Source: Escherichia phage ECBP2. Taken from it: a DNA stretch of 64,000 nucleotides. Below are positions 2,564 to 62,557 of the stretch, in pieces. The DNA is taken from the sequence record NC_018859.1; one strand, given 5' to 3'. The translations under genes and the position numbers were made by a program. Below the pieces are notes generated by a model, which did no database searches, was not told the origin of the DNA, and saw only the letters and a program-made list of their open reading frames with translations. Numbering within the stretch: the first letter of the stretch is position 1; each line of letters starts with the position of its first letter.

Positions 2564-3367
2564 TTGGCTATTGAAACTACAGCGGTAGTAACTACCGATT
2601 TAAATCCCCTGTACCCTCGTGACAGGGACTACATCTACGAAGGGGCGGCTCAACTCCGCCTCATTAAACAAGTGTTGATTAATACATTCCCTAATATCAC
2701 TGAACCAGTGAACCTGTCCTCTGAATCCTTTAAGGCTTTGTCAGAGAAGATCACATTTACTGGCGATGCAATGGATGTTGGTAATCTGATGATTAAGAAC
2801 CTAACTCCGGGTACAGGTGATAAAGATGCTGTAACCAAAGGTCAGATGGAAGCTTTCATGTTGAATTGGATGCAGAATAAACTTTATCGTATTGGTGCTT
2901 ACTATATCACTGAAGAAGATATCAACCCCGGTGATTCTAGCTCTCTCGGCTTTGGCTCTTGGGCTAAAGTTACTGGTGTTGTTATGGGTACTGGTGTTGT
3001 CAACCCCGATGGATCTGTTCCTAACGCCCAGCGTGTTGAGTTCCAAGCAGGCGGTACAGGTGGTCGTGTGTTCAATACAGTTCGTGCTGATAACATGCCT
3101 CTGACGACAATCAACGGTTCTAGTTTCCAAGTAAGTTCTTACTCTCACGCACACGGTATTACGATGGGTCGTGGTGATGCTAGTGGTCACAATAGCAACC
3201 CTAACTGGTATAGTCCGGGTGGTGGTTATACTCAGACAACTGATACAAATACTCACTCACACTCAATCTCTGGTTCTGTTAGTTTTGGTTATGATGATAT
3301 CTCTCGTCAGCCTATTAACACTTTACCACCGTTCCGAGCAGCACACATTTGGAGACGTATTAGCTAA
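2564..3367 (+). CDS. Tail fibre-like structural protein
   Basis: TTG start 5 nt after GGAGGTG. The G/S/T-rich beta-type sequence ends in LPPFRAAHIWRRIS, a fibre-like C-terminus. Located in the structural block. Confidence 0.5.
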   Translation: MAIETTAVVTTDLNPLYPRDRDYIYEGAAQLRLIKQVLINTFPNITEPVNLSSESFKALSEKITFTGDAMDVGNLMIKNLTPGTGDKDAVTKGQMEAFMLNWMQNKLYRIGAYYITEEDINPGDSSSLGFGSWAKVTGVVMGTGVVNPDGSVPNAQRVEFQAGGTGGRVFNTVRADNMPLTTINGSSFQVSSYSHAHGITMGRGDASGHNSNPNWYSPGGGYTQTTDTNTHSHSISGSVSFGYDDISRQPINTLPPFRAAHIWRRIS

Positions 3368-50407: not shown

Positions 50408-50571
50408 AACTTCTCCTGTTTATCACATTGATTGGTAAGCCAGTTATAAGACCCTCTGTTGTTCTTGCTTAATTCACAAGATACAAAGGAAGTCACACGG
50501 GCAAACCCCACGGTGGCTAAGCAAATAAAGATTGCTGCCAATAAGAACTTAACTTTCAACTTATTATCCAT
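50404..50571 (-). CDS. Small membrane/secreted protein (55 aa, below ORF-track cutoff)
   Basis: SD AAGAGG. Hydrophobic segment FLLAAIFICLATVGF. The stop overlaps the next start (ATGA). Confidence 0.4.
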   Translation of the reverse strand: MDNKLKVKFLLAAIFICLATVGFARVTSFVSCELSKNNRGSYNWLTNQCDKQEKL

Positions 50572-50591
50572 ACAACCTCTTCTTTGAACTT

Positions 50592-50616
50592 AAAAAAGGA
50601 CTCTCCTAAGAGAGCC
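50592..50616 (-). terminator. Rho-independent terminator inside spacer A
   Basis: Minus strand reads GGCTCTC-TTAG-GAGAGTCC followed by TTTTTT. Confidence 0.7.
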
Positions 50617-50812
50617 AAGCTTTAAGGCCAATTAAATAGATATCACCCAATATCTGTGGATAACCTGCTCTTAAAATATTCTATCCGACGGATGTTCGAG
50701 GACTGTTCCTCTCCCTAGCATCGGCCCCATACGGGTAAGATTAAATTAAGTTTAGGTTAGTTGAGCCAGAATAGCTCACATAGCCCTCTGATACTCACAA
50801 GGGCTATAGATG
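50617..50812 (-). ncRNA. Candidate structured RNA element, copy A (homologous to 56233..56462)
   Basis: ORF-free. Begins with hairpin ATAGCCCT-12 nt-AGGGCTAT straight after a stop codon, then a TTTAAT box, then a nested stem whose base pairs covary with copy B. Ends at a terminator. Confidence 0.35.
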
Positions 50813-51064
50813 TTACTCTGTGGCTCCGTCGAAGCGTAGGATTGCTGTTGGAACAGGAATCACAACCATGTCAATCTCTAAACGGAAGAGATGGCCTGTG
50901 CTTAGCTGAACTGCTGTTACCGGTTTAGCGATACCACCAACAGATGCTGAGGGGATTCGAATAAAGAAATCCCCCGGATATTCCGTTGCACGAAATACAT
51001 CTCCCGGTGACATATCCTTTACTTGGGTAATTGATTCAGGAGGGGTTTTATTAGCAATTTGCAT
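50813..51064 (-). CDS. Small protein of the GD(V/I/F)F family (1 of 7)
   Basis: Has the shared N-terminal pattern ...(L/V)..(L/M).(P/L/A)GD(V/I/C/F)F... and a beta-rich 75-87 aa body. Confidence 0.55.
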   Translation of the reverse strand: MQIANKTPPESITQVKDMSPGDVFRATEYPGDFFIRIPSASVGGIAKPVTAVQLSTGHLFRLEIDMVVIPVPTAILRFDGATE

Positions 51065-51297
51065 TACAGACCTTTCTTAGCACGATCTTTGGCAGTTTTG
51101 CCAGTGCGGATACGGTGGGAAACATTAACCAGCTCGCCGCCTTCGACGATGGTCACGCTTTTGTTTTTCGCAATATCAAACACAGACTTCTCTGTACCAC
51201 CCAGACGAATCTGACGCGGTTCACTTTGGGTCTGAGTTGACTTGGATTCAAACTGGAACGGCTGACGGATGGCATCAATTGCGCTAACTTTAGACAT
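51064..51297 (-). CDS. Hypothetical small protein
   Basis: SD AAGGTAA. 77 aa. Confidence 0.5.
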   Translation of the reverse strand: MSKVSAIDAIRQPFQFESKSTQTQSEPRQIRLGGTEKSVFDIAKNKSVTIVEGGELVNVSHRIRTGKTAKDRAKKGL

Positions 51298-51325
51298 GTT
51301 TTTATTACCTTAAATTAAAGAGAGA

Positions 51326-51739
51326 TTAAACAACGAATTGGAACGCTTCGTATCCAAACTTGTACGAGAAACCGTGCTTGAACTTCACTACACGACCACG
51401 ATCACGGAAAGCTTTCAGACGACTGCTGAACCCAGCCATCGGCTCAGGGTCAATAGGGCTGCGAATCTTCATAGCTACAGAGTGCAGCTTGAAGCGCTTA
51501 CCAGTGCTACAGGCCATCATCACGTACTCCATACGAGTAGTCCAGATGTTAAGCACCATGCTTGTTTTCTCCGCTGACCAACCAGTCTTGCGGGCGATTT
51601 CCTTATGGATGTTAAGTTCCAAAGGAAGTGGGAATTGCTTGTTGAATGAAGCCGGATAAAGCTTGACCAGAAGATCAATGTTTTCTTTATACGTTAAGTA
51701 AGCCAATTTCTTGCTTACGTTGGGGAATTTCCCAGCCAT
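51326..51739 (-). CDS. ProQ/FinO-domain RNA chaperone-like protein
   Basis: KENIDLLVKLYPASFNKQFPLPLELNIHKEI....WSAEKTSMVLNIWTTRMEYV......GKRFKL aligns with E. coli ProQ KEVIAFLAERFPHCF...RPLKIGIFQDL...[20 protein letters not shown]...GATRVDL. Confidence 0.6.
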   Translation of the reverse strand: MAGKFPNVSKKLAYLTYKENIDLLVKLYPASFNKQFPLPLELNIHKEIARKTGWSAEKTSMVLNIWTTRMEYVMMACSTGKRFKLHSVAMKIRSPIDPEPMAGFSSRLKAFRDRGRVVKFKHGFSYKFGYEAFQFVV

Positions 51740-51807
51740 TTTTGAAGCTCCAAAACAGCGCCGAAAAGAGAGGCGTCATAGTAGCTAAAGGGAGGAGAGA
51801 AGAGGGC

Positions 51808-51924
51808 TTATTTACTTGCCTTTTTCTGTCCGTTAATGTACCAGATAACTGAACCATCAGGCTGTCGTTGACCGAAGCCTTTCAAGTTAACCATTTCTTC
51901 TTCAGAGTAGGCACGTTTTCTCAC
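51808..51924 (-). CDS. Hypothetical micro-protein (38 aa)
   Basis: GTG start 7 nt after CAGGAGA. Basic. Confidence 0.3.
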   Translation of the reverse strand: MRKRAYSEEEMVNLKGFGQRQPDGSVIWYINGQKKASK

Positions 51925-51937
51925 TGATTTTCTCCTG

Positions 51938-52195
51938 TCAGTAGAAGGTGTGTGTAGAGTCGTCGTTCATAGATAACCAAACGAAGAAGACAATCACACA
52001 GAAAGCAATAATACCGAGAGTTGCAAGGATTATAGTGTTAGCTAATGTGATATCTAACACTCTTTGCAGGTACATAAAGAATTGTATGATACCACATAAC
52101 CCTAGCACGACCCCAATAACAATAAGGAGCCAGTACGTGCAGAGAAGGACTGCATCCAATAGTGATACATACTTTGGATCATCTTTATGTTTCAC
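51938..52195 (-). CDS. Small membrane protein
   Basis: Two to three hydrophobic helices (LLIVIGVVLGLCGIIQFF, IILATLGIIAFCVIVFFVWL). Confidence 0.5.
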   Translation of the reverse strand: MKHKDDPKYVSLLDAVLLCTYWLLIVIGVVLGLCGIIQFFMYLQRVLDITLANTIILATLGIIAFCVIVFFVWLSMNDDSTHTFY

Positions 52196-52448
52196 TAATC
52201 TTCTCCACTAAATCCAGAGTTGCCGATTCAAATACAACACCAACTGGCATATTGGATGCCATATTACGAACATATCCACTCTGCATCGACACAGCTCGGT
52301 GGTATTCACAACCATTAGAGCTTTTGTTTACTTTCATGTAAATGGTTTGTTCTTTATCTTCTTTCAAAGTAAAGAAAGAGCCGATAGAAACACCTGCCAC
52401 CATTAGAGGAATATCCGCAATACGAGTTTTGTTAATGGTCAGAGCCAT
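52185..52448 (-). CDS. Small protein, distant GD.F family member (2 of 7)
   Basis: SD AAGGAG. IGSFFTLKED sits at the family motif position. Confidence 0.45.
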   Translation of the reverse strand: MALTINKTRIADIPLMVAGVSIGSFFTLKEDKEQTIYMKVNKSSNGCEYHRAVSMQSGYVRNMASNMPVGVVFESATLDLVEKISET

Positions 52449-52451
52449 TGC

Positions 52452-52706
52452 TTACTCCTTAATAGTTGCTTCAGCTTTGATAGGAATAACAGCAACATCT
52501 TTACGAGGCGCTGTCGCTCGGCCTGTGTTAAGACAGGCTACGAGTCTGTGCTCATCCGCACCTTTAATGCAGAGTCGAGTTGAGAACTCGGTAGACAGCA
52601 AGATGTATAAATCACCATCTTCACTGTTAGGATACATAAAGCAATCCCCAAGTCGCAAAGCACTGAGGGGTATTGAATTTTTACCTGCTGGCATGTTAAC
52701 TTTCAT
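52452..52706 (-). CDS. Small protein of the GD.F family (3 of 7)
   Basis: LSALRLGDCFMYPN motif. Confidence 0.5.
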   Translation of the reverse strand: MKVNMPAGKNSIPLSALRLGDCFMYPNSEDGDLYILLSTEFSTRLCIKGADEHRLVACLNTGRATAPRKDVAVIPIKAEATIKE

Positions 52707-52716
52707 TTCATCACCT

Positions 52717-53013
52717 TTATTTGTGAGAGTTTACGAACTCTTCAAGAACATTAACTGCATCTCGATATGCATTGGTAACTTTATACCAGTGATCAGTACC
52801 GAATGCACTCGGTTTGACGATTCTAACCAGACGACGGTGATAACGCACTGAGTAGACTAGATTCTCATAAGTCACCCTCAGTTCGTTTTTGCGTTCCATC
52901 TGAATAGATTTAAGGTGTCGCTTTGTTTTCCAGACTGTTACCGGCATAACCCTCTTACCTTGTTGTAAAGTATGGACCAATTTATGAAAGAACTCTCGGA
53001 AGAATGCTTTCAT
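52717..53013 (-). CDS. Hypothetical basic protein
   Basis: 98 aa. Its ATG directly follows the hairpin GGGAGG-8 nt-CCTCCC. Confidence 0.5.
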   Translation of the reverse strand: MKAFFREFFHKLVHTLQQGKRVMPVTVWKTKRHLKSIQMERKNELRVTYENLVYSVRYHRRLVRIVKPSAFGTDHWYKVTNAYRDAVNVLEEFVNSHK

Positions 53014-53231
53014 AAATAGGGGGAGGGGACGAATCCTCCCATATCCTATTAATTAATGTTGCATGTAAGACCTAACAATCCGATGCTGTAGTGGATAGCG
53101 TAAAACGCTTACCGGCATTAAACCCAGCCCATGAGGGGCTTATGTGATTAAAATGCTCAACATTGAGCGGTTAGTTGATAGGAGATCTGAAGTCCTATCT
53201 CAAAGGACTCTCGTAAGAATCCTTCACGATA

Positions 53232-53486
53232 TTACTTAGTAATAAAGACTGTCACCTTATCCATTACCCAGCCTATCAACATAAGGAAAGGTAAGAAGAG
53301 GATAAAGATCAGCATAAAAGGCCAGAAGAATATTACCGTCCAAATAGAATATTCATCAGGCTTACCACTCCATGAGGAATGGAAGAAGTTGTAGAGTGTA
53401 TTGGTTTTGAAGCACCATTTAACTACAATGGCTGCTAACCACCAACCAATAACATAAATCAGGAGGACATACGCTGCTGTAATCAT
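53232..53486 (-). CDS. Small membrane protein
   Basis: Three hydrophobic helices, W/F-rich. Confidence 0.5.
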   Translation of the reverse strand: MITAAYVLLIYVIGWWLAAIVVKWCFKTNTLYNFFHSSWSGKPDEYSIWTVIFFWPFMLIFILFLPFLMLIGWVMDKVTVFITK

Positions 53487-53713
53487 TCACCGTTCCATTG
53501 ATAGTTGCGAGTTACCACGTTTCCGTGGATAAGGAAGTGCTGGCGGCGAAGGATATCTTTAACGTTGTAGTAGGCAGCGTTACCGAGATGGCCTTCTTTA
53601 ATAAGCCAACGAAGATTACGGATATCAACCAACAGCATTTTTACTTGCTGTTGGCATGAAGTTTGAGCTGCTGTTTCAAGTAGAGCTTTCGTATCAGAAT
53701 AATGACCGGACAT
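53483..53713 (-). CDS. Hypothetical small protein
   Basis: 76 aa with an ATGA overlap. Confidence 0.5.
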   Translation of the reverse strand: MSGHYSDTKALLETAAQTSCQQQVKMLLVDIRNLRWLIKEGHLGNAAYYNVKDILRRQHFLIHGNVVTRNYQWNGE

Positions 53714-53714
53714 A

Positions 53715-54041
53715 TCACCACTCCTTACCTGTTGTTGTCACAGAGCCACCACACAGCTCACCACGGGAGATGAAGTCATAACGTGACCAATCACCTTGGG
53801 TAGCCATATCACGCTTTGCATAAGCCTTCTCGTCAACAGCACCGCCATTGGAACAAGAAGCACCAGCATAACGCATATCAATTTCACCACTAGGAATCTT
53901 CTCCCCGCTGTGCCAACGGGAAACACAGACACCTTCTACCGATAATGCACACCATCCATCAGGACGATGCTGTACGCAGCCTGTAAGAGCTACACAGGCG
54001 ATAAAGATACAGGTTAAGGTAATTACACCACCCCAGCTCAT
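53715..54041 (-). CDS. Lipoprotein, Cys-rich
   Basis: Signal peptide with lipobox LTGC. Confidence 0.55.
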   Translation of the reverse strand: MSWGGVITLTCIFIACVALTGCVQHRPDGWCALSVEGVCVSRWHSGEKIPSGEIDMRYAGASCSNGGAVDEKAYAKRDMATQGDWSRYDFISRGELCGGSVTTTGKEW

Positions 54042-54178
54042 GATCCCTCCTGAAGCGCCTTACGGCGGCTATCTCGCCAAGCCATCCAAGTGTAGATTTT
54101 GAGTTCTTCTCTTTCTTCTTCACTGAACAAACGAGGAGTGAAGATATCATCAAACCATTTATTAAACTCAGGGGTCAT
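54038..54178 (-). CDS. Hypothetical small protein (46 aa, below ORF-track cutoff)
   Basis: SD GGAGGG lies 4 nt before the ATG. The stop overlaps the next start (ATGA). Confidence 0.4.
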   Translation of the reverse strand: MTPEFNKWFDDIFTPRLFSEEEREELKIYTWMAWRDSRRKALQEGS

Positions 54179-54294
54179 ATACCCTCCTACGTTGATTGGT
54201 AGCCCCAAGATGCCGTATCTTATCCAACGACCCCATACAGACCTATAGGCTATTGTATGGCGCCGAAGGAGTACGCAAGCATCTTAGGGACATA
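54179..54294 (-). ncRNA. Candidate structured RNA immediately 3' of tRNA-Arg
   Basis: An 11-bp long-range stem CCCUAAGAUGC/GCAUCUUGGGG encloses a 7-bp hairpin CCAUACA...UGUAUGG. It shares GUAUGGGG(U/C)CG with spacer A. Confidence 0.3.
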
Positions 54295-54370
54295 TGGTGC
54301 ACCCTACAGGATTCGAACCTGTAACCAACGACTTAGAAGGTCGCTGCTCTATCCATTGAGCTAAGGGTGC
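54295..54370 (-). tRNA. tRNA-Arg(UCU): tRNA-Arg, anticodon UCU, CCA encoded
   Basis: Minus strand folds as a 76 nt cloverleaf: GCACCCT TA GCTC AATGGATA GAGC A GCGAC CTTCTAA GTCGT TGGTT ACAGG TTCGAAT CCTGT AGGGTGC ACCA. Confidence 0.9.
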
Positions 54371-54379
54371 TTGAATTGT

Positions 54380-54688
54380 TTATAAGGAGAAAGACTTCTT
54401 ACAATCCTTATCTTCAAAAGTGTAGTAGCCTGTTGTATCAGGGAAGTAGGCATACTTTGTTTCTTTGCCATCAGTAGCCATGACACGATTACCAGAAGTT
54501 GTTTCTACAAACAGAAGCCCATCTCTTACCATACCATTAGATTCTTTGATACCAGTTAAGCTATGCTCTTTAAGAGTGCATTGCTGAACACTCTGATACT
54601 TAACTCCAATCTCTGCACTATTAACAGAGATGATACCAATGGTTGTCATTAGTAGTAAGGTTGAGATGATAAAATGCTTTTGTTTCAC
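54380..54688 (-). CDS. Secreted protein
   Basis: GTG start after AGAGGT. Signal-like N-terminus HFIISTLLLMTTIGIISVNSA. Confidence 0.5.
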   Translation of the reverse strand: MKQKHFIISTLLLMTTIGIISVNSAEIGVKYQSVQQCTLKEHSLTGIKESNGMVRDGLLFVETTSGNRVMATDGKETKYAYFPDTTGYYTFEDKDCKKSFSL

Positions 54689-54706
54689 ATTAACCTCTGG
54701 ATTTAT

Positions 54707-54916
54707 TTAACTGAAGATACGCAAGGCCACATCGTGATAGATATGACCGGGGACTTTGTGCTGTTCTATTTTCAAACAGCGTTTACAGACACGAGATACA
54801 CGAGACTCTTTCGCTTCAACTGGAGTGTCTTTAGCGTGAGTGATATGTAAGTTTTCAGTGATCACCCACTCGTGTTTACATCCAGAATCTTCGGGCTTTT
54901 TCTTACGAAAGAACAT
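54707..54916 (-). CDS. Small zinc-ribbon protein, tandem paralogue 3
   Basis: CKHEW...VCKRCLK. SD AAGAGGTG. Confidence 0.45.
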   Translation of the reverse strand: MFFRKKKPEDSGCKHEWVITENLHITHAKDTPVEAKESRVSRVCKRCLKIEQHKVPGHIYHDVALRIFS

Positions 54917-54924
54917 AACACCTC

Positions 54925-55089
54925 TTAGATCAAATCTGTTTTCTTGTGCTTACCACACACTTTACAGCGGGAGTAGATACGCAACCCTTGCTGCTCTCCT
55001 CCAGCAATACGATGTGTAACCTTTAGTTCATAAGTAGAAAGATCTTCCCACTCATGGAAATGAAAGAAACGTTTGAACCATTTAATCAT
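54925..55089 (-). CDS. Small zinc-ribbon protein, tandem paralogue 2 (54 aa, below ORF-track cutoff)
   Basis: MIKWFKRFFHFHEW...RCKVCGK. Confidence 0.4.
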   Translation of the reverse strand: MIKWFKRFFHFHEWEDLSTYELKVTHRIAGGEQQGLRIYSRCKVCGKHKKTDLI

Positions 55090-55098
55090 AACGATTCC

Positions 55099-55245
55099 TT
55101 AGATTATGTCACGATGACTAACTTCACCACACACTTTACACTGGATATCGTAACGTACGCCCCTTGAATCTCCACAGATCAGCGGACGGGTGGCAATAAT
55201 CTTCCAATCATGACAATGAAAGACACGCTTTATCCACGTAATCAT
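55099..55245 (-). CDS. Small zinc-ribbon protein, tandem paralogue 1 (48 aa, below ORF-track cutoff)
   Basis: MITWIKRVFHCHDW...QCKVCGE. Confidence 0.4.
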   Translation of the reverse strand: MITWIKRVFHCHDWKIIATRPLICGDSRGVRYDIQCKVCGEVSHRDII

Positions 55246-55246
55246 A

Positions 55247-55504
55247 TTAAACACACGCCGGTAGTTCAATTAACTGAGGAGCACGACAAGGACCATCTTC
55301 ATACACACCAACCAACGTTGGCATGTAAGGCCCAGCGCACTGGTATTCGTCGAACAGTTCGTTATAGTTAGGCTTCCACTTCCAAGCCCACACATAACCC
55401 ATTCGATCAATGGCAATGTAACGAGTGTTCAGAGGAACCTGCATCATCACATCACCAACTGCTATTACTTTCGTAATAACTGCTGCTCGGAAATTTGTCT
55501 TCAT
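55247..55504 (-). CDS. Hypothetical small protein
   Basis: 85 aa. Confidence 0.5.
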   Translation of the reverse strand: MKTNFRAAVITKVIAVGDVMMQVPLNTRYIAIDRMGYVWAWKWKPNYNELFDEYQCAGPYMPTLVGVYEDGPCRAPQLIELPACV

Positions 55505-55752
55505 GGCGCTTTAATCTCAATCTGAACATTGACAACAAATACAGTATGGTTTGCACTGTACACCGAAGTGCCTATGATTGGCTTGTCATCACTGAGGATT
55601 TCAACAGCGTGTTCAAGGTTGATCTTCAGATGAAGACGCCCTGATTCCATGAAGAAATCACCAGCACGTATCTCACCGAACTTGGCTGGCACACCGATAG
55701 AGGGTATCAGTATGTCAGTGCGACCTTTACGGTCAAATAAACGATTAAACAT
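55501..55752 (-). CDS. Small protein of the GD.F family (4 of 7)
   Basis: FGEIRAGDFFMESG motif. SD AGAGAGG. Confidence 0.5.
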   Translation of the reverse strand: MFNRLFDRKGRTDILIPSIGVPAKFGEIRAGDFFMESGRLHLKINLEHAVEILSDDKPIIGTSVYSANHTVFVVNVQIEIKAP

Positions 55753-55795
55753 ATCAACCTCTCTTGTTAGTTTAAGTAAGAGTTATCCCTTAATT

Positions 55796-55826
55796 AAAAC
55801 AACAAAGGCCACCCCGAAGGGCAGCC
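55796..55826 (-). terminator. Rho-independent terminator
   Basis: Minus strand reads GGCTGCCC-TTCG-GGGTGGCC followed by TTTGTTGTTTT. Confidence 0.7.
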
Positions 55827-55831
55827 TCTTA

Positions 55832-56029
55832 TTAAGCACTACGCAGTTTGTTATTCAAGAAGCGATCTTCTGCATTATATAGGAATGCATAGAATAATTC
55901 TTTTGCTACATCCCGATCGCAATTGAGACATTTAGAAACCTGTAACAACAGGCCATCGCGACTGTTAGGATGGTCAATTATCGCAAGACGAATAATCTCA
56001 CGGATACCAACATCATGCTCAGCCGCCAT
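55832..56029 (-). CDS. Hypothetical small protein
   Basis: Start MAAEHD overlaps the stop of the upstream micro-ORF. Confidence 0.45.
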   Translation of the reverse strand: MAAEHDVGIREIIRLAIIDHPNSRDGLLLQVSKCLNCDRDVAKELFYAFLYNAEDRFLNNKLRSA

Positions 56030-56159
56030 AGAACCAATCACCTTGACGCTTACGGATGTTAGTGGTCAGACGAAGCATGGCAGACTCAATCTTCAGAGCA
56101 CCATTTGCTACTGCATCCATACGTTCAGGACGGTTCATACGTTTGGTTGTCTTTTTCAT
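56019..56159 (-). CDS. Hypothetical basic micro-protein (46 aa)
   Basis: Reads MKKTTKRMNRPERMD... Below the ORF-track cutoff. Weak SD. Confidence 0.3.
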   Translation of the reverse strand: MKKTTKRMNRPERMDAVANGALKIESAMLRLTTNIRKRQGDWFYGG

Positions 56160-56197
56160 AACGTTCTCTCTTTGTTAATGGAGGCAGGATTGCCAGT

Positions 56198-56232
56198 TAA
56201 TATAAAGGGAAGCCCTACACGTTAAGGCTTCC
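56198..56232 (-). terminator. Terminator-like hairpin inside spacer B
   Basis: Minus strand reads GGAAGCC-11 nt-GGCTTCC followed by CTTTATATT. Confidence 0.5.
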
Positions 56233-56462
56233 GCTTGTACAAACTGTCGAGAACTCTCTACCCCTAGATTGTTCTCTATCCCAAACCGATACATACCCCT
56301 ACATATCGGAATGCCATTCGAAAATTAAACAGGTTTTAGTCTATCACCGGATGTTTGAGACAAGTCTCGCCCTAGCGGTGAGCCATATGGCATTGAGATT
56401 ATAGTTAATTGAGGAACATCCTCACATAGCCCTCTGATAAACACAAGGGCTATAAGTCGATG
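56233..56462 (-). ncRNA. Candidate structured RNA element, copy B (homologous to 50617..50812)
   Basis: Same order of parts as copy A: post-stop hairpin ATAGCCCT/AGGGCTAT, TATAAT box, covarying nested stem. It has two further hairpins with UAGGGGUA loops, then a terminator-like hairpin. Confidence 0.35.
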
Positions 56463-56687
56463 TTACTTATTAGTTAGTCGAACGTTAGGCACAAGTTTAA
56501 CTGCTGCTGTTTTCATCTCTCCAATGACCTTACCGGTAGAGAGATTAACAAAATAAGCAGTGACTTCACCACCACAAGCTGTACGCATATAATAACTGCT
56601 TCCAGTTCTGTCAAACTGAAAAACGTCTCCCGGCTTTACATCACCAAGAGTTGTGACGCTTTGCTTTTTATCAATATCAATCTTCAT
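56463..56687 (-). CDS. Small protein of the GD.F family (5 of 7)
   Basis: LGDVKPGDVFQFD motif. Confidence 0.55.
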   Translation of the reverse strand: MKIDIDKKQSVTTLGDVKPGDVFQFDRTGSSYYMRTACGGEVTAYFVNLSTGKVIGEMKTAAVKLVPNVRLTNK

Positions 56688-56918
56688 TTAACCACCAATA
56701 TTCGTTACTTGTACATTAGGTACAGAGATAACTTCATGATCTTCAGGTATCTGGAACAAAGTCCCCTGACCAAGACCAACGACACGGCGCATACCCTGCA
56801 CATAGGTGTCTGTCTTTAGGTAGAGGTGTTCAGTGTTATTTTGTAATCGGAATACGTCACCCGGACGTAGATCGCTGAGCTTTTTAGTAACAACTAAAGA
56901 TGGGAGATTAATTTTCAT
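56688..56918 (-). CDS. Small protein of the GD.F family (6 of 7)
   Basis: LSDLRPGDVFRLQ motif. Confidence 0.55.
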   Translation of the reverse strand: MKINLPSLVVTKKLSDLRPGDVFRLQNNTEHLYLKTDTYVQGMRRVVGLGQGTLFQIPEDHEVISVPNVQVTNIGG

Positions 56919-57157
56919 TACTTACTCTCGATAGCAATTTTGTATTCATACTTAGAGACTTCAGCGTCCGCAGAAACCTTAAGTATATCAGAGGTGTTGT
57001 TTAATTGCATTGCCGATGAATATTGAGATGATACCTTCATCCAGAAAAAGGTGTCACCATCGGGGTTTTGAAACTTGAAGATGTCCCCATTAGAGAGGTC
57101 ACCGAAAGTTAACTTATTTTGTTTAGGCTTGGGGATGATTTCGAAATTCATTTTCAT
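56918..57157 (-). CDS. Small protein of the GD.F family (7 of 7)
   Basis: FGDLSNGDIFKFQ motif. Confidence 0.55.
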   Translation of the reverse strand: MKMNFEIIPKPKQNKLTFGDLSNGDIFKFQNPDGDTFFWMKVSSQYSSAMQLNNTSDILKVSADAEVSKYEYKIAIESK

Positions 57158-60697: not shown

Positions 60698-60763
60698 GAT
60701 ATTCACCTTTCAATTGTAAGGGCACTATGCCCCGCTCTCTATGAGCTTTTTAAGTCGCCATTG

Positions 60764-60840
60764 ACTTATCAATATCCACTCATTGTTAAGTAATTATTGA
60801 TAAGTGGGGCGGTCTTATCAGAAGTTAACCTTGCCGCCCC
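60764..60840. promoter_or_regulatory. Perfect 11-bp inverted repeat (ACTTATCAATA / TATTGATAAGT, 20-bp spacer) abutting a 7-bp GC stem (GGGGCGG / CCGCCCC)
   Basis: Read directly: arms at 60764-60774 and 60795-60805, GC stem at 60806-60812 and 60834-60840. Lies 70-140 nt upstream of the ATG at 60697. Confidence 0.4.
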
Positions 60841-61618
60841 TTTATCTGTGATGTTTCATCTGGTATCTTTAATTAGTCGCTATAAACGAAGCCGACCTGA
60901 TAGCGATGATCAATCATCACAATAAGGCAGTGCGTCCGACTCTAATTAGTTACTTTATTGTAACCGTCGGCAATATCGTCTACTTTGCTTTCGCTCTCGC
61001 CTATCCTTTTATACTAACTCTCAATCGCTAACCATCGCCCACTACGGGAGGTTATTGCGAAAGAGTCATTAGCCGTCTAATATTCCGACGTTTTATATCT
61101 TTCGGCAAGTTTACTACATAACCCGACTATGTACTTTCATCTTATGATGAATCTCAAGCCGTTCACATCGTAAACGTTCACACTAAACCTTATTGTTAAA
61201 TAGCAATTTGCCACTTTTTAACCACTCCCCGCCGCTCTCAATTGAGCGTTAATTCGTCGGACTTGCCTACCCTGATTAACTTCTTTCACTGTAGCACCAT
61301 GTTAGCGATGGCCGCCGCTACCCTTAACCGTGGGCGATTAGCTTAAGCCTTTGCGTGTACTCAATGAATCCGTTTATCAGTGGTGACTTTTCCAGTAAGG
61401 GAATGTAAAACTGTTTACCCTGATATTTTAGGGAGTTTTACGCCGTTTTATCTGGTATGCTGTCCGATGGTTATTATCTTCCAGCATATTTAACCGATAT
61501 AGGAGAATGTTTAAATTGTTAAAGAGCGGTAAATCTATCAACGTGCTTTCTCACGTTATGCAACTGTTAGCCGTTGTTACGCTTTTCACTGAAGCGGTGA
61601 TTTGCTCAAGTGATGCTC

Positions 61619-61647
61619 ATTATGGACCATGTTGTTTTTGCCGTCAA
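61619..61647 (-). promoter_or_regulatory. Sigma70-type promoter P2 with A-tract UP element
   Basis: Minus strand reads GAAAAAGATTAAAAAAGTGA TTGACG -17 nt- CATAAT GAGCAT. Confidence 0.65.
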
Positions 61648-61921
61648 TCACTTTTTTAATCTTTTTCGTCGTTCCCGCTATTGGGAGGATATATCAACCC
61701 GCTTTATTGGGTTGAAGATTAAGCGATGAGGCTTAACCCATGATTCATATTGTTAAAGAGCGTTTAGCCTTTTATAGTGTCTGCTAATCACTACATCATT
61801 AAAGGCTTACTTGTTCATTAACGGGGCGCCTAAGCCCGAACTACCCGCTGCACTATGTGCCACCTTTCCCGCGATACGTTGATTTGGGAACTAGTTAACG
61901 TTGTTTTGTTAACTTGTGGTT

Positions 61922-61950
61922 AGTATGGACTACCTTAACCACGTTTGCAA
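61922..61950 (-). promoter_or_regulatory. Sigma70-type promoter P3 with A-tract UP element
   Basis: Minus strand reads GATGATAAAAAAGAGG TTGCAA -17 nt- CATACT. Confidence 0.55.
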
Positions 61951-62250
61951 CCTCTTTTTTATCATCTTCTTTTATTCTTTTCCCTTATCTCGCGTGAATC
62001 TATGCGAAAGGGCAAGATGATAAGTCTGATTTGTCTTTTAGGAATCTAGTGCGCTTTCAAGCATTGACCATTTGAAAGTATCGAACAAATGAGGCTTATT
62101 TTGTTGCTCATCGTCCGCATGTTCACGTATGAATCAGGAATCAATTCTAGTGGTCAACTAAGCGCCTTATAGTAATGACGTTCCCGCCACCTGTAAGACA
62201 AATCATATTTTTAAAGAGCGGGATTTTTCAAGTCATCGCTGACTATGCTC

Positions 62251-62279
62251 ACTATATATCAGGCTTTTTCCGGTGTCAA
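62251..62279 (-). promoter_or_regulatory. Sigma70-type promoter P1 with A-tract UP element
   Basis: Minus strand reads GAAAATACTTGAAAAAGAGTA TTGACA -17 nt- TATAGT GAGCAT. Confidence 0.7.
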
Positions 62280-62376
62280 TACTCTTTTTCAAGTATTTTC
62301 ACTTTCTAGCCTGATTTTTAAAGAGCGGGGCAATTTCTTGCCTTGTATGTTTTACATCGTACCCGATGAAATGAAG

Positions 62377-62385
62377 TATACATTA
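62377..62385 (-). promoter_or_regulatory. TAATGTATA motif inside the ORF-free region
   Basis: Minus strand reads GATTAATGTATACTTC. Confidence 0.4.
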
Positions 62386-62557
62386 ATCAGATGAGGTTGC
62401 AATAGGGTAAAGCAAATTATTTTAAACTTTTTCACTATAGGGAGGTAAAAGAGCGGGCGCACGTGATACATCATAGGAAACGGCTTGTAAAGCGATAAAA
62501 AGCGGCCTGAAACGCACTGTAGCGAGCTAAAAGGGAGTAAGGTATACAATCACCTTA

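Follow-up and report, generated by a model that had tools for sequence, protein, structure and literature searches.

Between two small early genes of Escherichia phage ECBP2 lies a gap of 303 nucleotides (nt), here called spacer B, and the question arises of what this gap is for. The DNA analysed is a 64,000-nt stretch of the phage sequence (NC_018859.1), referred to as the window, and all positions follow its numbering. The window is that of a phiEco32-like coliphage of the kuravirus group, subfamily Gordonclarkvirinae, with Bas88 as the nearest record (95.5% identity over 1.1 kb). The local genes are on the minus strand, in an early region with a single tRNA-Arg gene (54295-54370), and the gap (56160-56462) has an open reading frame (ORF) of 74 amino acids (aa; 56463-56687) upstream and one of 46 aa (56019-56159), a homologue of phiEco32 gp112, downstream. 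The early promoters known from the kuravirus group are located far upstream, at the right genome end, and none is reported at this gap (PMC4281155, SU10 paper). A sequence-only reading had drawn hairpins with reiterated UAGGGG loops and a terminator on the minus strand of the gap and had likened them to protein-sponging RNAs of the CsrB/RsmZ type.

Spacer B (56160-56465 with the upstream stop codon) and a second element 5.6 kb downstream, copy A (50572-50822), were found to be paralogues, both present in every kuravirus examined. Spacer B is one of two copies of a kuravirus-specific, non-coding, structured RNA domain of ~230-310 nt, and it is transcribed within the early polycistronic mRNA, on the gene-sense strand. 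That the domain is a functional structured RNA is very probable. The two elements are best described as an RNA family not described before, of a known general kind and with no function assigned; no description of an RNA element, a boxA or a small RNA (sRNA) in phiEco32-like phages was found in the literature searched (the primary phiEco32 papers, PMC2587145 and PMC3275717, lay outside the search). The kuraviruses (the phiEco32 group), a coliphage genus with candidates for therapy, have been well sequenced, and their early region is annotated solely as small hypothetical genes. The two stretches conserved best in this region are not genes but folded RNAs, paralogous to each other and with invariant loops.

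Conservation and fold of spacer B

At least 80% of spacer B was present in 97 phage records, with 79-98% identity, and a gp112 homologue follows it in every genome examined; the gp112 homologue itself was found in 105 phage records and is close to full length in 97. Between the window and NJ01, Bas94 and IMEP8 the nucleotide identity amounted to 79-80% in spacer B and 83-85% in copy A; the adjacent genes were less conserved (gp112, 72-74%; p120, 62-63%). The conserved block begins exactly at AAGUAAC, which includes the upstream stop codon. AAGTAAC was invariant in all of the 20 distinct spacer B copies that were aligned, though the upstream gene varies between phages, and the AGUAAC of the element start provides the stop codon for whichever ORF lies upstream. 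No reading frame was conserved in spacer B: the longest stop-free stretches measured 21-61 codons, their frames differed between phages, and indels of 1-2 nt occurred. The two ORFs annotated within spacer B in Bas88 are, therefore, not credible.

RNAalifold predicted 77 pairs for the 20 copies, 13 of them compensatory. A refined fold of nine helices comprised 72 pairs and had 98.8% of its cells paired, compared with 37-46% after the 3' partners had been slid by 1-3 columns; both sides had changed in 14 pairs, compared with 0-2 in the slid controls. The covariation score was 0.216 versus 0.127 and was reached by none of 500 shuffles. In the refined fold 148 G-U cells stood against 2 A-C cells, which shows that the fold is selected on the minus strand of the window, the mRNA sense, and such an asymmetry marks an RNA rather than a site in duplex DNA. 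The minimum free energy of the whole spacer gave z = -4.07 on either strand and, therefore, does not discriminate between the strands.

These data bear on the question of whether the elements act as DNA, be it as an origin or single-strand initiation site, as operator palindromes or as a recombination linker, with no RNA function. P1 and P3 are palindromic, and the elements are located at the borders of mosaic regions, where the upstream genes vary and B and A lie 2.9-6.4 kb apart. However, selection is seen on one strand only, this strand is the transcribed sense strand, and the stems covary while the sequence drifts, which a protein-bound duplex site would not need. We consider a DNA-level function highly improbable.

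The helices P1-P9 are listed in Table 1. The base of P1, UAUAGCC/GGCUAU, is shared with copy A of other phages, where it carries different tops (UUC-UUCG-GAG, UUCUUC-CGGA-GAAG); the P1 stem covaries because the same base bears these different apical parts in copy A, and pair 11:52 is C-G, U-G or U-A. The sequence AAUUAAC of the AU-rich linker is able to pair with GUUUAAUU (~56322-56330), which closes a junction. In the core, P3 is GCC-AUAU-GGC and covaries between GCC/GGC and GGC/GCC, with CCC/GGG in copy A, and P4 (UCACCG/CGGUGA) surrounds the internal loop CUAGGGC / AAACAUC and the hairpin P5 (GAGA-CUUG-UCUC). The core loop sequences are invariant (CUAGGG / RAACAUC), all P5 variants pair, and P5 of spacer B has a CUUG tetraloop.

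The two UAGGGG-loop hairpins of the sequence-only reading, CCGAUAUGUAGGGGUAUGUAUCGG (56286-56309) and GAGAACAAUCUAGGGGUAGAGAGUUCUC (56249-56276), were found to be P6 and P7 and to fold better than had been drawn; both are much more stable than shuffled sequences. P6 is CCGAUAUGUA-GGGG-UAUGUAUCGG, has 98.5% of its cells paired and varies on one side in four pairs (C-G/U-G, G-U/G-C/A-U, U-G/U-A/C-G and G-C/G-U). P7 reads GAGAAC-aa-UCUA-GGGG-UAGA-ga-GUUCUC in the window, with 6+4 bp around a 2x2 internal loop. This internal loop is seen in the window type; in the phiEco32 and NJ01 types the stem pairs throughout. In four of the P7 pairs both sides have changed. P7 is confined to B, with one copy per genome. 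In P8 every cell was paired (100%) and both partners had changed in seven pairs, and nine of the 20 sequences carried a 58-nt insertion in its apical loop, which is a typical variable-length expansion of a structured RNA. This insertion is located at ~2752-2809 in phiEco32 (AACCUGAACUCUUAGGCAGAGAAGGUCGGCRAUGAGUACGCGGUCAGRAUUAGYCUMCUGA) and is also found in 172-1, EP335, Ptacy1479, Paul, 4E8 and IMGVR_045988, all of the phiEco32 clade.

Besides the two hairpins, the sequence-only reading had named a long-range pairing and a terminator. All four features are where it had placed them on the minus strand, but only the hairpins are conserved. The 8-bp pairing of AAUGCCAU (56387-56394) with AUGGCAUU (56310-56317) can form in the window, but it is complete in only three of the 20 sequences (window, Bas88, TH34) and the other 17 have 3-5 of the 8 pairs. 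Its two segments are parts of local hairpins, GCC-AUAU-GGC (covarying with GGC/GCC) and GAAUGGCAUUC, of which the long-range pairing appears to be a side effect. The supposed terminator, GGAAGCC...GGCUUCC followed by CUUUAUAUU (56199-56232), is present in the window as well, where a simple terminator scan flags 56232-56208. Yet only the window's clade, with 6 of the 20 sequences, has a terminator-like tail (at least 5 U of 8), and the other 14 have CGCUAUAU, CCUUAUAU or UGCUAUAU with 3-4 U of 8. The supposed U-tract is paired with the upstream AAG/AGU (columns 238-240 with 326-328; A-U to G-C, G-C to U-G). The hairpin is the apical part of the covarying P8 and, as a terminator, at best clade-specific and weak.

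The clustering of (C/G)UAGGG motifs was borne out. Over the entire window (C/G)TAGGG shows no excess (28 observed, 36.7 expected), but four of the 28 lie within 163 nt of this minus strand, where 0.036 are expected (Poisson P ~7e-8, or ~5e-5 allowing for ~800 positions), and the only two occurrences of TAGGGGTA in the 64 kb are in spacer B, 35 nt apart. The motifs are invariant while the stems drift, in agreement with the earlier proposal of a functional, structured minus-strand RNA with reiterated G-runs in loops and joints.

The element matched no known family. A scan of the whole window with Rfam 15 at gathering thresholds returned only tRNA, and a permissive scan (E <= 10) of 56100-56520 gave two chance-level matches and no Rfam family, including CsrB/RsmZ, riboswitches and leaders. 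Neither ARAGORN nor covariance models at E <= 10 called a tRNA- or transfer-messenger RNA (tmRNA)-like structure in spacer B, the tRNA-Arg being the sole tRNA. No similarity to the element was found in 5,426 complete E. coli genomes, by which host mimicry was rejected. IMG/VR and metagenomes were searched with the pattern TATAGCC...GGCTATRTGAG, and matches to GCTAGGG...AACATCCG were filtered for the P4 and P5 pairings; among the matches listed by such pattern scans, none outside kuravirus-type contigs was consistent with the structure. The exact P1 pattern was found on three IMG/VR contigs, all kuravirus, among the matches listed. The pattern TAGGGGTA...TAGGGGTA gave at least 120 loci, of which 100 were searched with a model of P6-P7 (R1), and among the matches listed the best reached only E = 0.12. 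Per genome, there are two copies of the element: R1 finds one P6-P7 copy, and a relaxed core descriptor matches A and B alone in the window.

Copy A and the possible roles of the two elements

Copy A was analysed in an alignment of 13 sequences. It begins with GAGUAAC, again including the stop codon of the ORF upstream, and was found in every kuravirus genome examined, beyond the window's clade, followed by genes for proteins of 51-55 aa, 120 aa (p120) and 406 aa. It lies upstream of the p120 homologue in 10 of the 10 genome stretches with that gene, and four further copies were found on IMG/VR and metagenome contigs. P2, which is invariant in B, covaries here (GAGCU/GGCUC, GAGUU/GACUC, GAGUU/AACUC), P3 is CCC-GUAU-GGG, the internal loop reads CUAGGG(A/C) / (G/A)AACAUC, and the helices UAACCU:AGGUUA and CUUAA:UUAAG are predicted to close the junction. 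When P4 was compared between A and B, 99.2% of the cells were paired (slid controls, 23-44%) and three of the six pairs had changed on both sides. A and B each have P2, P3, P5 and P6, whose stems differ between the copies while the loops are the same; the P6-like hairpin of A is AGAUAU-UGGGUR-AUAUCU, and the G-run loops are UA-GGGG-UA, twice, in B and U-UGGGUR-A, once, in A. The G-rich motifs that had been noticed before in copy A (CUAGGGA, GUAUGGGG and the UGGGUG loop) are all present.

A and B share one architecture: P1/P2 at the stop codon, the AU-rich linker, the closed junction and long hairpins with G-run loops. Their 3' ends differ. A ends in an intrinsic terminator with a T6-7 tail, kept in 13 of 13 sequences and placed ~25 nt ahead of the AUG that follows, and B ends in P8 and P9, which lead directly into the ribosome-binding site (RBS) of gp112. 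P8 occupies the place homologous to the terminator of A and looks like a degenerate terminator. The lower P1ext stem is absent from copy A.

We propose, with a probability of about 0.5, that the element acts in cis, as a domain by which the early polycistronic mRNA is regulated or processed. The invariant loops and the internal loop would serve as contact surfaces for a trans factor, be it a protein, the ribosome or another RNA, and the small basic protein encoded directly downstream of B would be a candidate. Binding or folding would set the fate of the downstream cistrons: at A it may choose between termination and read-through, and at B it may control access to the RBS and/or the cleavage and stability of the gp112 message. 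The hairpins could also leave protected RNA ends after processing. In B, RNAalifold predicts, without covariation, that the 3' arm of P2, UCCUC (56411-56415), pairs with the gp112 Shine-Dalgarno sequence GAGAGA (56165-56171); together with the mutually exclusive P2 and lower P1ext stem at the upstream stop codon, this modelled pairing suggests translational coupling. In A, AAGAGC:GCUCUU was read from the alignment as a possible antiterminator, of invariant bases and outside the reach of covariation.

Several points weigh against a cis-acting domain. The covariation comes from ~4-5 sequence lineages, so that the independent events are modest in number. The UCCUC:GAGAGA pairing, and likewise a pairing of the GGGG loops with CCUC, are beyond covariation testing because all of their bases are invariant. 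That B would be a part of the mRNA rather than a discrete RNA is read from the sequence. No partner was found, as gp112 has no RNA-binding domain recognisable by Pfam, PHROGs or structure comparison. Further, the terminator region of A consists of a U-rich stretch, the terminator and a U6-7 tail, like the 3' module of Hfq-type sRNAs, which would fit a trans-acting RNA equally well.

Such a trans-acting decoy or sponge sRNA would accumulate as a processed or terminated RNA, and its G-run loops would titrate a factor of the host or the phage, either a protein or an RNA rich in C/U, for instance the seed of an sRNA or the anti-Shine-Dalgarno sequence. Sponge RNAs encoded by phages are well established (AgvB and AsxR of prophages of enterohaemorrhagic E. 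coli), which counts for this explanation, as do the invariant G-run loops on covarying stems and the conserved terminator of A after a U-rich stretch, which resembles the 3' module of RNAs bound by Hfq or ProQ. In the window's clade, a protein with a ProQ/FinO domain is even encoded two genes upstream of A (Table 1). This FinO-like protein, to which the sequence-only reading had alluded, is real, but its gene was found in only 3 of 12 stretches tested by tblastn (window, TH34, EK010), all of the window's clade, while the RNA is in all of them, and the protein cannot, therefore, be a general partner. The analogy to CsrB/RsmZ had to be given up: there are merely 3-4 G-runs (GGGG, GGGG and CUAGGG(C) in the loops of B), GGA is found in some clades only (CUAGGGAGAG) and is not conserved, no Rfam family matches, and B is not an independent transcription unit, being without a conserved promoter or terminator. 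The element is welded to the upstream stop codon and the downstream RBS, and an mRNA-embedded domain fits this better than a sponge gene. The element is not an autonomous CsrB-type sponge gene, and a sponge of any kind appears possible, if unlikely.

The position between a stop codon and the next RBS, at two intergenic sites, would also suit a processing or stability element, in which hairpins and the AU-rich linker provide sites for RNase III and/or RNase E and hairpin-protected ends. This explanation overlaps with the cis-acting domain proposed above. P1ext of B has ~18 bp with two small internal loops, about two helical turns (z = -4.3), and hairpins flank the AU-rich single-stranded linker. 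An RNase III substrate of the T7 type is a coaxial RNA duplex of at least ~20 bp, often with an internal loop where the enzyme cuts. In the lower stem of P1ext one pair covaries, and copy A has no such stem; P6 and P7 (10-12 bp) are short for this enzyme. Cleavage would leave unexplained the invariant internal loop, the G-run tetraloops and the 14-nt invariant single strand, and ~300 nt of conserved structure far exceed what a cleavage site needs. As an explanation in its own right, processing is doubtful.

If the one core in A and B, made up of P3, P4 with its invariant internal loop, P5 and the G-run hairpins, is a sensor, with a terminator as output in A and RBS access or cleavage in B, the two would represent a new class of RNA that senses a ligand or a factor, be it in the manner of a riboswitch or as a ribozyme that processes itself. 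We hold this to be rather unlikely; if true, the RNA would time or meter blocks of early genes on a host or phage signal.

Table 1. Positions of the two RNA elements, their parts and related features of the early region (window numbering)
Feature	Positions	Strand	Basis or remark
UAA stop codon of the upstream ORF (56463-56687)	56463-56465	minus	within the AAGUAAC element start; ORF list
P1 hairpin, UAUAGCCCUUgUG-UUUAU-CAgAGGGCUAUG	56425-56454	minus	invariant in B; z = -4.3
P1ext, downward extension of P1 by AACAUC:GAUGUU	56416-56463	minus	B; reaches the stop codon
P2, alternative hairpin GAGG-AUGUU-CCUC	56411-56423	minus	invariant in B; covaries in A
AU-rich linker AAUUAACUAUAAUCUCAAU	56392-56410	minus	20-sequence alignment
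Core module P3 + P4 + P5	56344-56391	minus	covariation; A-versus-B comparison
Single-stranded stretch UAGACUAAAACCUG, 14 nt	56330-56343	minus	invariant in 20/20
P6, 10-bp hairpin with GGGG tetraloop (56296-56299), displays GUAGGGGUA	56286-56309	minus	covariation; z = -3.3
Linker UUUGGGAU	56278-56285	minus	invariant; equivalent in copy A is UUUGGAUU
P7, 12-position hairpin with GGGG tetraloop (56261-56264), displays CUAGGGGUAG	56249-56276	minus	covariation; z = -3.8
P8, long irregular helix: AGUU...AACU, AAG...UUU, GGAAGCCUU...AGGGCUUCC	56195-56245	minus	covariation
P9 hairpin GGCA-AUCC-UGCC, overlaps the CCUCC motif (56180-56184)	56183-56194	minus	stems invariant; loop AUAA, AUCC or ACCC
Shine-Dalgarno-like AGAGAGA (56165-56171) and AUG (56157-56159) of the gp112 homologue	56157-56171	minus	ORF list; alignment
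Copy A	50572-50822	minus	repeat found in the window; sequence; consensus fold
Copy A, P1; P2; P3	50779-50808; 50762-50778; 50726-50735	minus	
Copy A, P4 with internal loop CUAGGGA / GAACAUC; P5	50719-50724 with 50685-50690; 50698-50711	minus	
Copy A, hairpin with UGGGUG loop	50639-50654	minus	
Copy A, intrinsic terminator; U6 tract	50599-50616; 50592-50597	minus	
RBS and AUG of the 55-aa ORF at the end of copy A	50569-50571 (AUG)	minus	
137-aa ORF with ProQ/FinO RNA-chaperone domain	51326-51739	minus	Pfam PF04352, 27.3 bits (cut-off 27)
Strong intrinsic terminators in the early operon	58286-58267; 55829-55804; 50616-50599	minus	e.g. GCCCCGUCUUCGGAUGGGGC followed by U6
boxA-like CCGCUCUUUAACAAU	61516-61530	minus	
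boxA-like ACGCUCUUUAACAAU	61750-61764	minus	
boxA-like CCGCUCUUUAAAAAU	62208-62222; 62315-62329	minus	
boxA-like CCGCUCUUUUACC	near 62450	minus	

Early leader, promoters and neighbouring genes

Strong intrinsic terminators lie within the early operon, so that the genes downstream of them must rely on read-through or antitermination. The boxA consensus is CGCUCUUUAACAA-like, and a lambda-type nut site joins it to a boxB hairpin. At least 4-5 boxA-like sequences of the rrn/lambda type were seen in the gene-sense orientation at 61190-62470 (minus strand), most of them 30-130 nt downstream of a near-consensus sigma-70 promoter (e.g. ATTGACA-17-TATAGT near 62250-62279). Judged by their sequence, they suggest Nus-factor (NusB/S10) antitermination of early transcripts. 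A search with GCTCTTTAACAA, allowing up to two mismatches, gave no minus-strand match in A or B; good matches clustered at 61190-62330. About 1.6 kb downstream of the early promoters (60700-62300, minus strand) appear to be a largely gene-free leader with many hairpins and the repeats D2, D5, D8, D13, D14 and D18. The sequence TTAATGTATAC (62375-62385, minus strand) was seen within the early promoter and leader region; it fits the tAATGTATA consensus of the middle/late promoters of the phiEco32 sigma factor gp36 (PMC4281155, PMC4331800).

The two elements could themselves be sites of processive antitermination, either as put-like RNAs that act on RNA polymerase or as nut-like sites read by gp112 as an analogue of N. 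An undefined antitermination mechanism is expected in this phage group (PMC8948821, 7-11 paper), and the layout would suit it: two related structured RNAs stand in one operon upstream of terminators (A directly before 50616-50599, B two genes before 55829-55804), B is directly followed by the gene for a conserved small basic protein, and the boxA repeats of the early leader suggest that Nus factors are recruited. A and B have, however, no boxA, their hairpin loops are not boxB-like, and they are much larger than put or nut. Moreover, gp112 has no detectable similarity to N proteins or solved structures, and its homologue in Salmonella phage 7-11 is without such a leader. Antitermination by A and B is, in our view, improbable.

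In spacer B no sigma-70-like site was found, in line with the earlier statement that a convincing -35 box is missing, and the spacer is probably without a promoter of its own. Three candidates were rejected: the TATAAT of the linker occurs in the window's clade alone; CTGACT-18-TATATT, seen by eye in 8 of the 13 aligned A sequences, is not conserved as a selected function would be; and GUAUGUAUC in P6 resembles the phage sigma factor (gp36) promoter tAATGTATA (PMC4281155) only loosely, a resemblance that is lost in phiEco32.

The gp112 homologue is a basic protein of 46 aa whose N-terminal half is highly conserved (STKRMNRPERMDAVANGALK). Pfam gave a sub-threshold match to a domain of unknown function only, the PHROGs family has no known function, and no related solved structure was found. 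The gp112 of Salmonella phage 7-11 is a distant homologue, and R1 matched nothing in that phage. There, a gene-free stretch of 710 nt (2639-3349) follows the gp112 homologue. It contains two tRNA-like T-arm/acceptor ends (GGTTCGAATCC... and GGTTCGACTCC...GCTCCA) and a sub-threshold match to permuted tmRNA (29.6 bits, threshold 47), ARAGORN calls nothing in it, and its end shares the RBS context CUAACAAAGAGAGA with spacer B.

Small early proteins of 74-83 aa with a (K/S)PGDVF motif are encoded on the minus strand by the paralogous genes 56463-56687, 56688-56918 and 50813-51064, with 56918-57157 and 55501-55752 as probable further paralogues. Of three that were scanned, 56463-56687 and 50813-51064 match PHROGs 6570, 7832 and 16423; the others were assigned by reading translations. 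In ECBP2 one such paralogue is located directly upstream of each RNA element, which accounts for the window repeat D12 and suggests a joint duplication or exchange of gene and element. B and A are separated by 2.9 kb in Bas94, 4.3 kb in 4E8, 4.9 kb in EK010, 5.6 kb in the window and 6.4 kb in Paul. The block in between (50823-56159 in the window and its equivalents in relatives), with tiny ORFs and the tRNA, is highly mosaic, and the conserved elements may serve as recombination anchors for the exchange of cassettes.

The spacer next to the tRNA had also been listed as a carrier of G-rich motifs. It does contain GUAUGGGG and CUUGGGG, but matches neither the core descriptor nor the P6-P7 model. 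This 110-nt spacer downstream of tRNA-Arg (54180-54294, minus strand) also has a UCCUUCGG hairpin and is unrelated to the elements.

Comparison with known systems

The elements add a covariation-supported family, absent from databases, to the known RNAs and give a testable handle on how early expression is partitioned, be it by termination, read-through, processing or translation. Should the loops prove to be a binding site for a host factor or small molecule, a new class of regulatory RNA would be at hand in a tractable E. coli phage. By its sequence, the element qualifies as none of CsrB/RsmZ, nut, tRNA-like RNAs or any Rfam family. The likeness to CsrB/RsmZ lies in a short G-rich motif repeated in hairpin loops; unlike these RNAs, the element has GGGG/GGG and not GGA, 3-4 copies and not 5-22, and neither a promoter of its own nor a conserved terminator nor an Rfam match. 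With ROOL, GOLLD and raiA-type RNAs it has in common an ornate, covariation-supported fold that is phage-borne and near a tRNA gene region. However, it is smaller (~300 nt), matches them neither in sequence nor in structure, lies in an operon where it abuts coding sequences, and is limited to one phage subfamily.

Lambda nutL-N and nutR-tR1, like putL and putR of HK022, also consist of two related RNA elements in early transcripts. The layout resembles that of the nut sites, with B directly upstream of the gene for a small basic protein and A upstream of a terminator, and the early leader of ECBP2 carries boxA-like sequences; but A and B are without boxA and boxB and 4-5 times larger, and gp112 lacks similarity to N. 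HK022 put is an RNA of two stem-loops and ~70 nt that renders the polymerase terminator-resistant in cis, from which A and B differ in size and architecture. The RNase III sites of the T7 early genes are conserved intergenic hairpins between a stop codon and the next RBS in a polycistronic early RNA made by the host RNA polymerase, as A and B would be. A and B are, however, far more complex, with a junction, invariant loops and G-run tetraloops, and P1ext alone nears the length of a substrate.

Riboswitches and other leader RNAs resemble the element in the closed junction, the invariant unpaired nucleotides and the covarying stems, in the joining of a core to a terminator (A) or to a helix that runs into an RBS (B), and in the location in the 5' leader of a putatively regulated cistron. 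Unlike them, the element lies between cistrons and not after a promoter, has no Rfam match, and its switching pairings are without support from covariation. By analogy, the element would work most like a structured leader or attenuator in which one sensor-like core is mounted on two output platforms.

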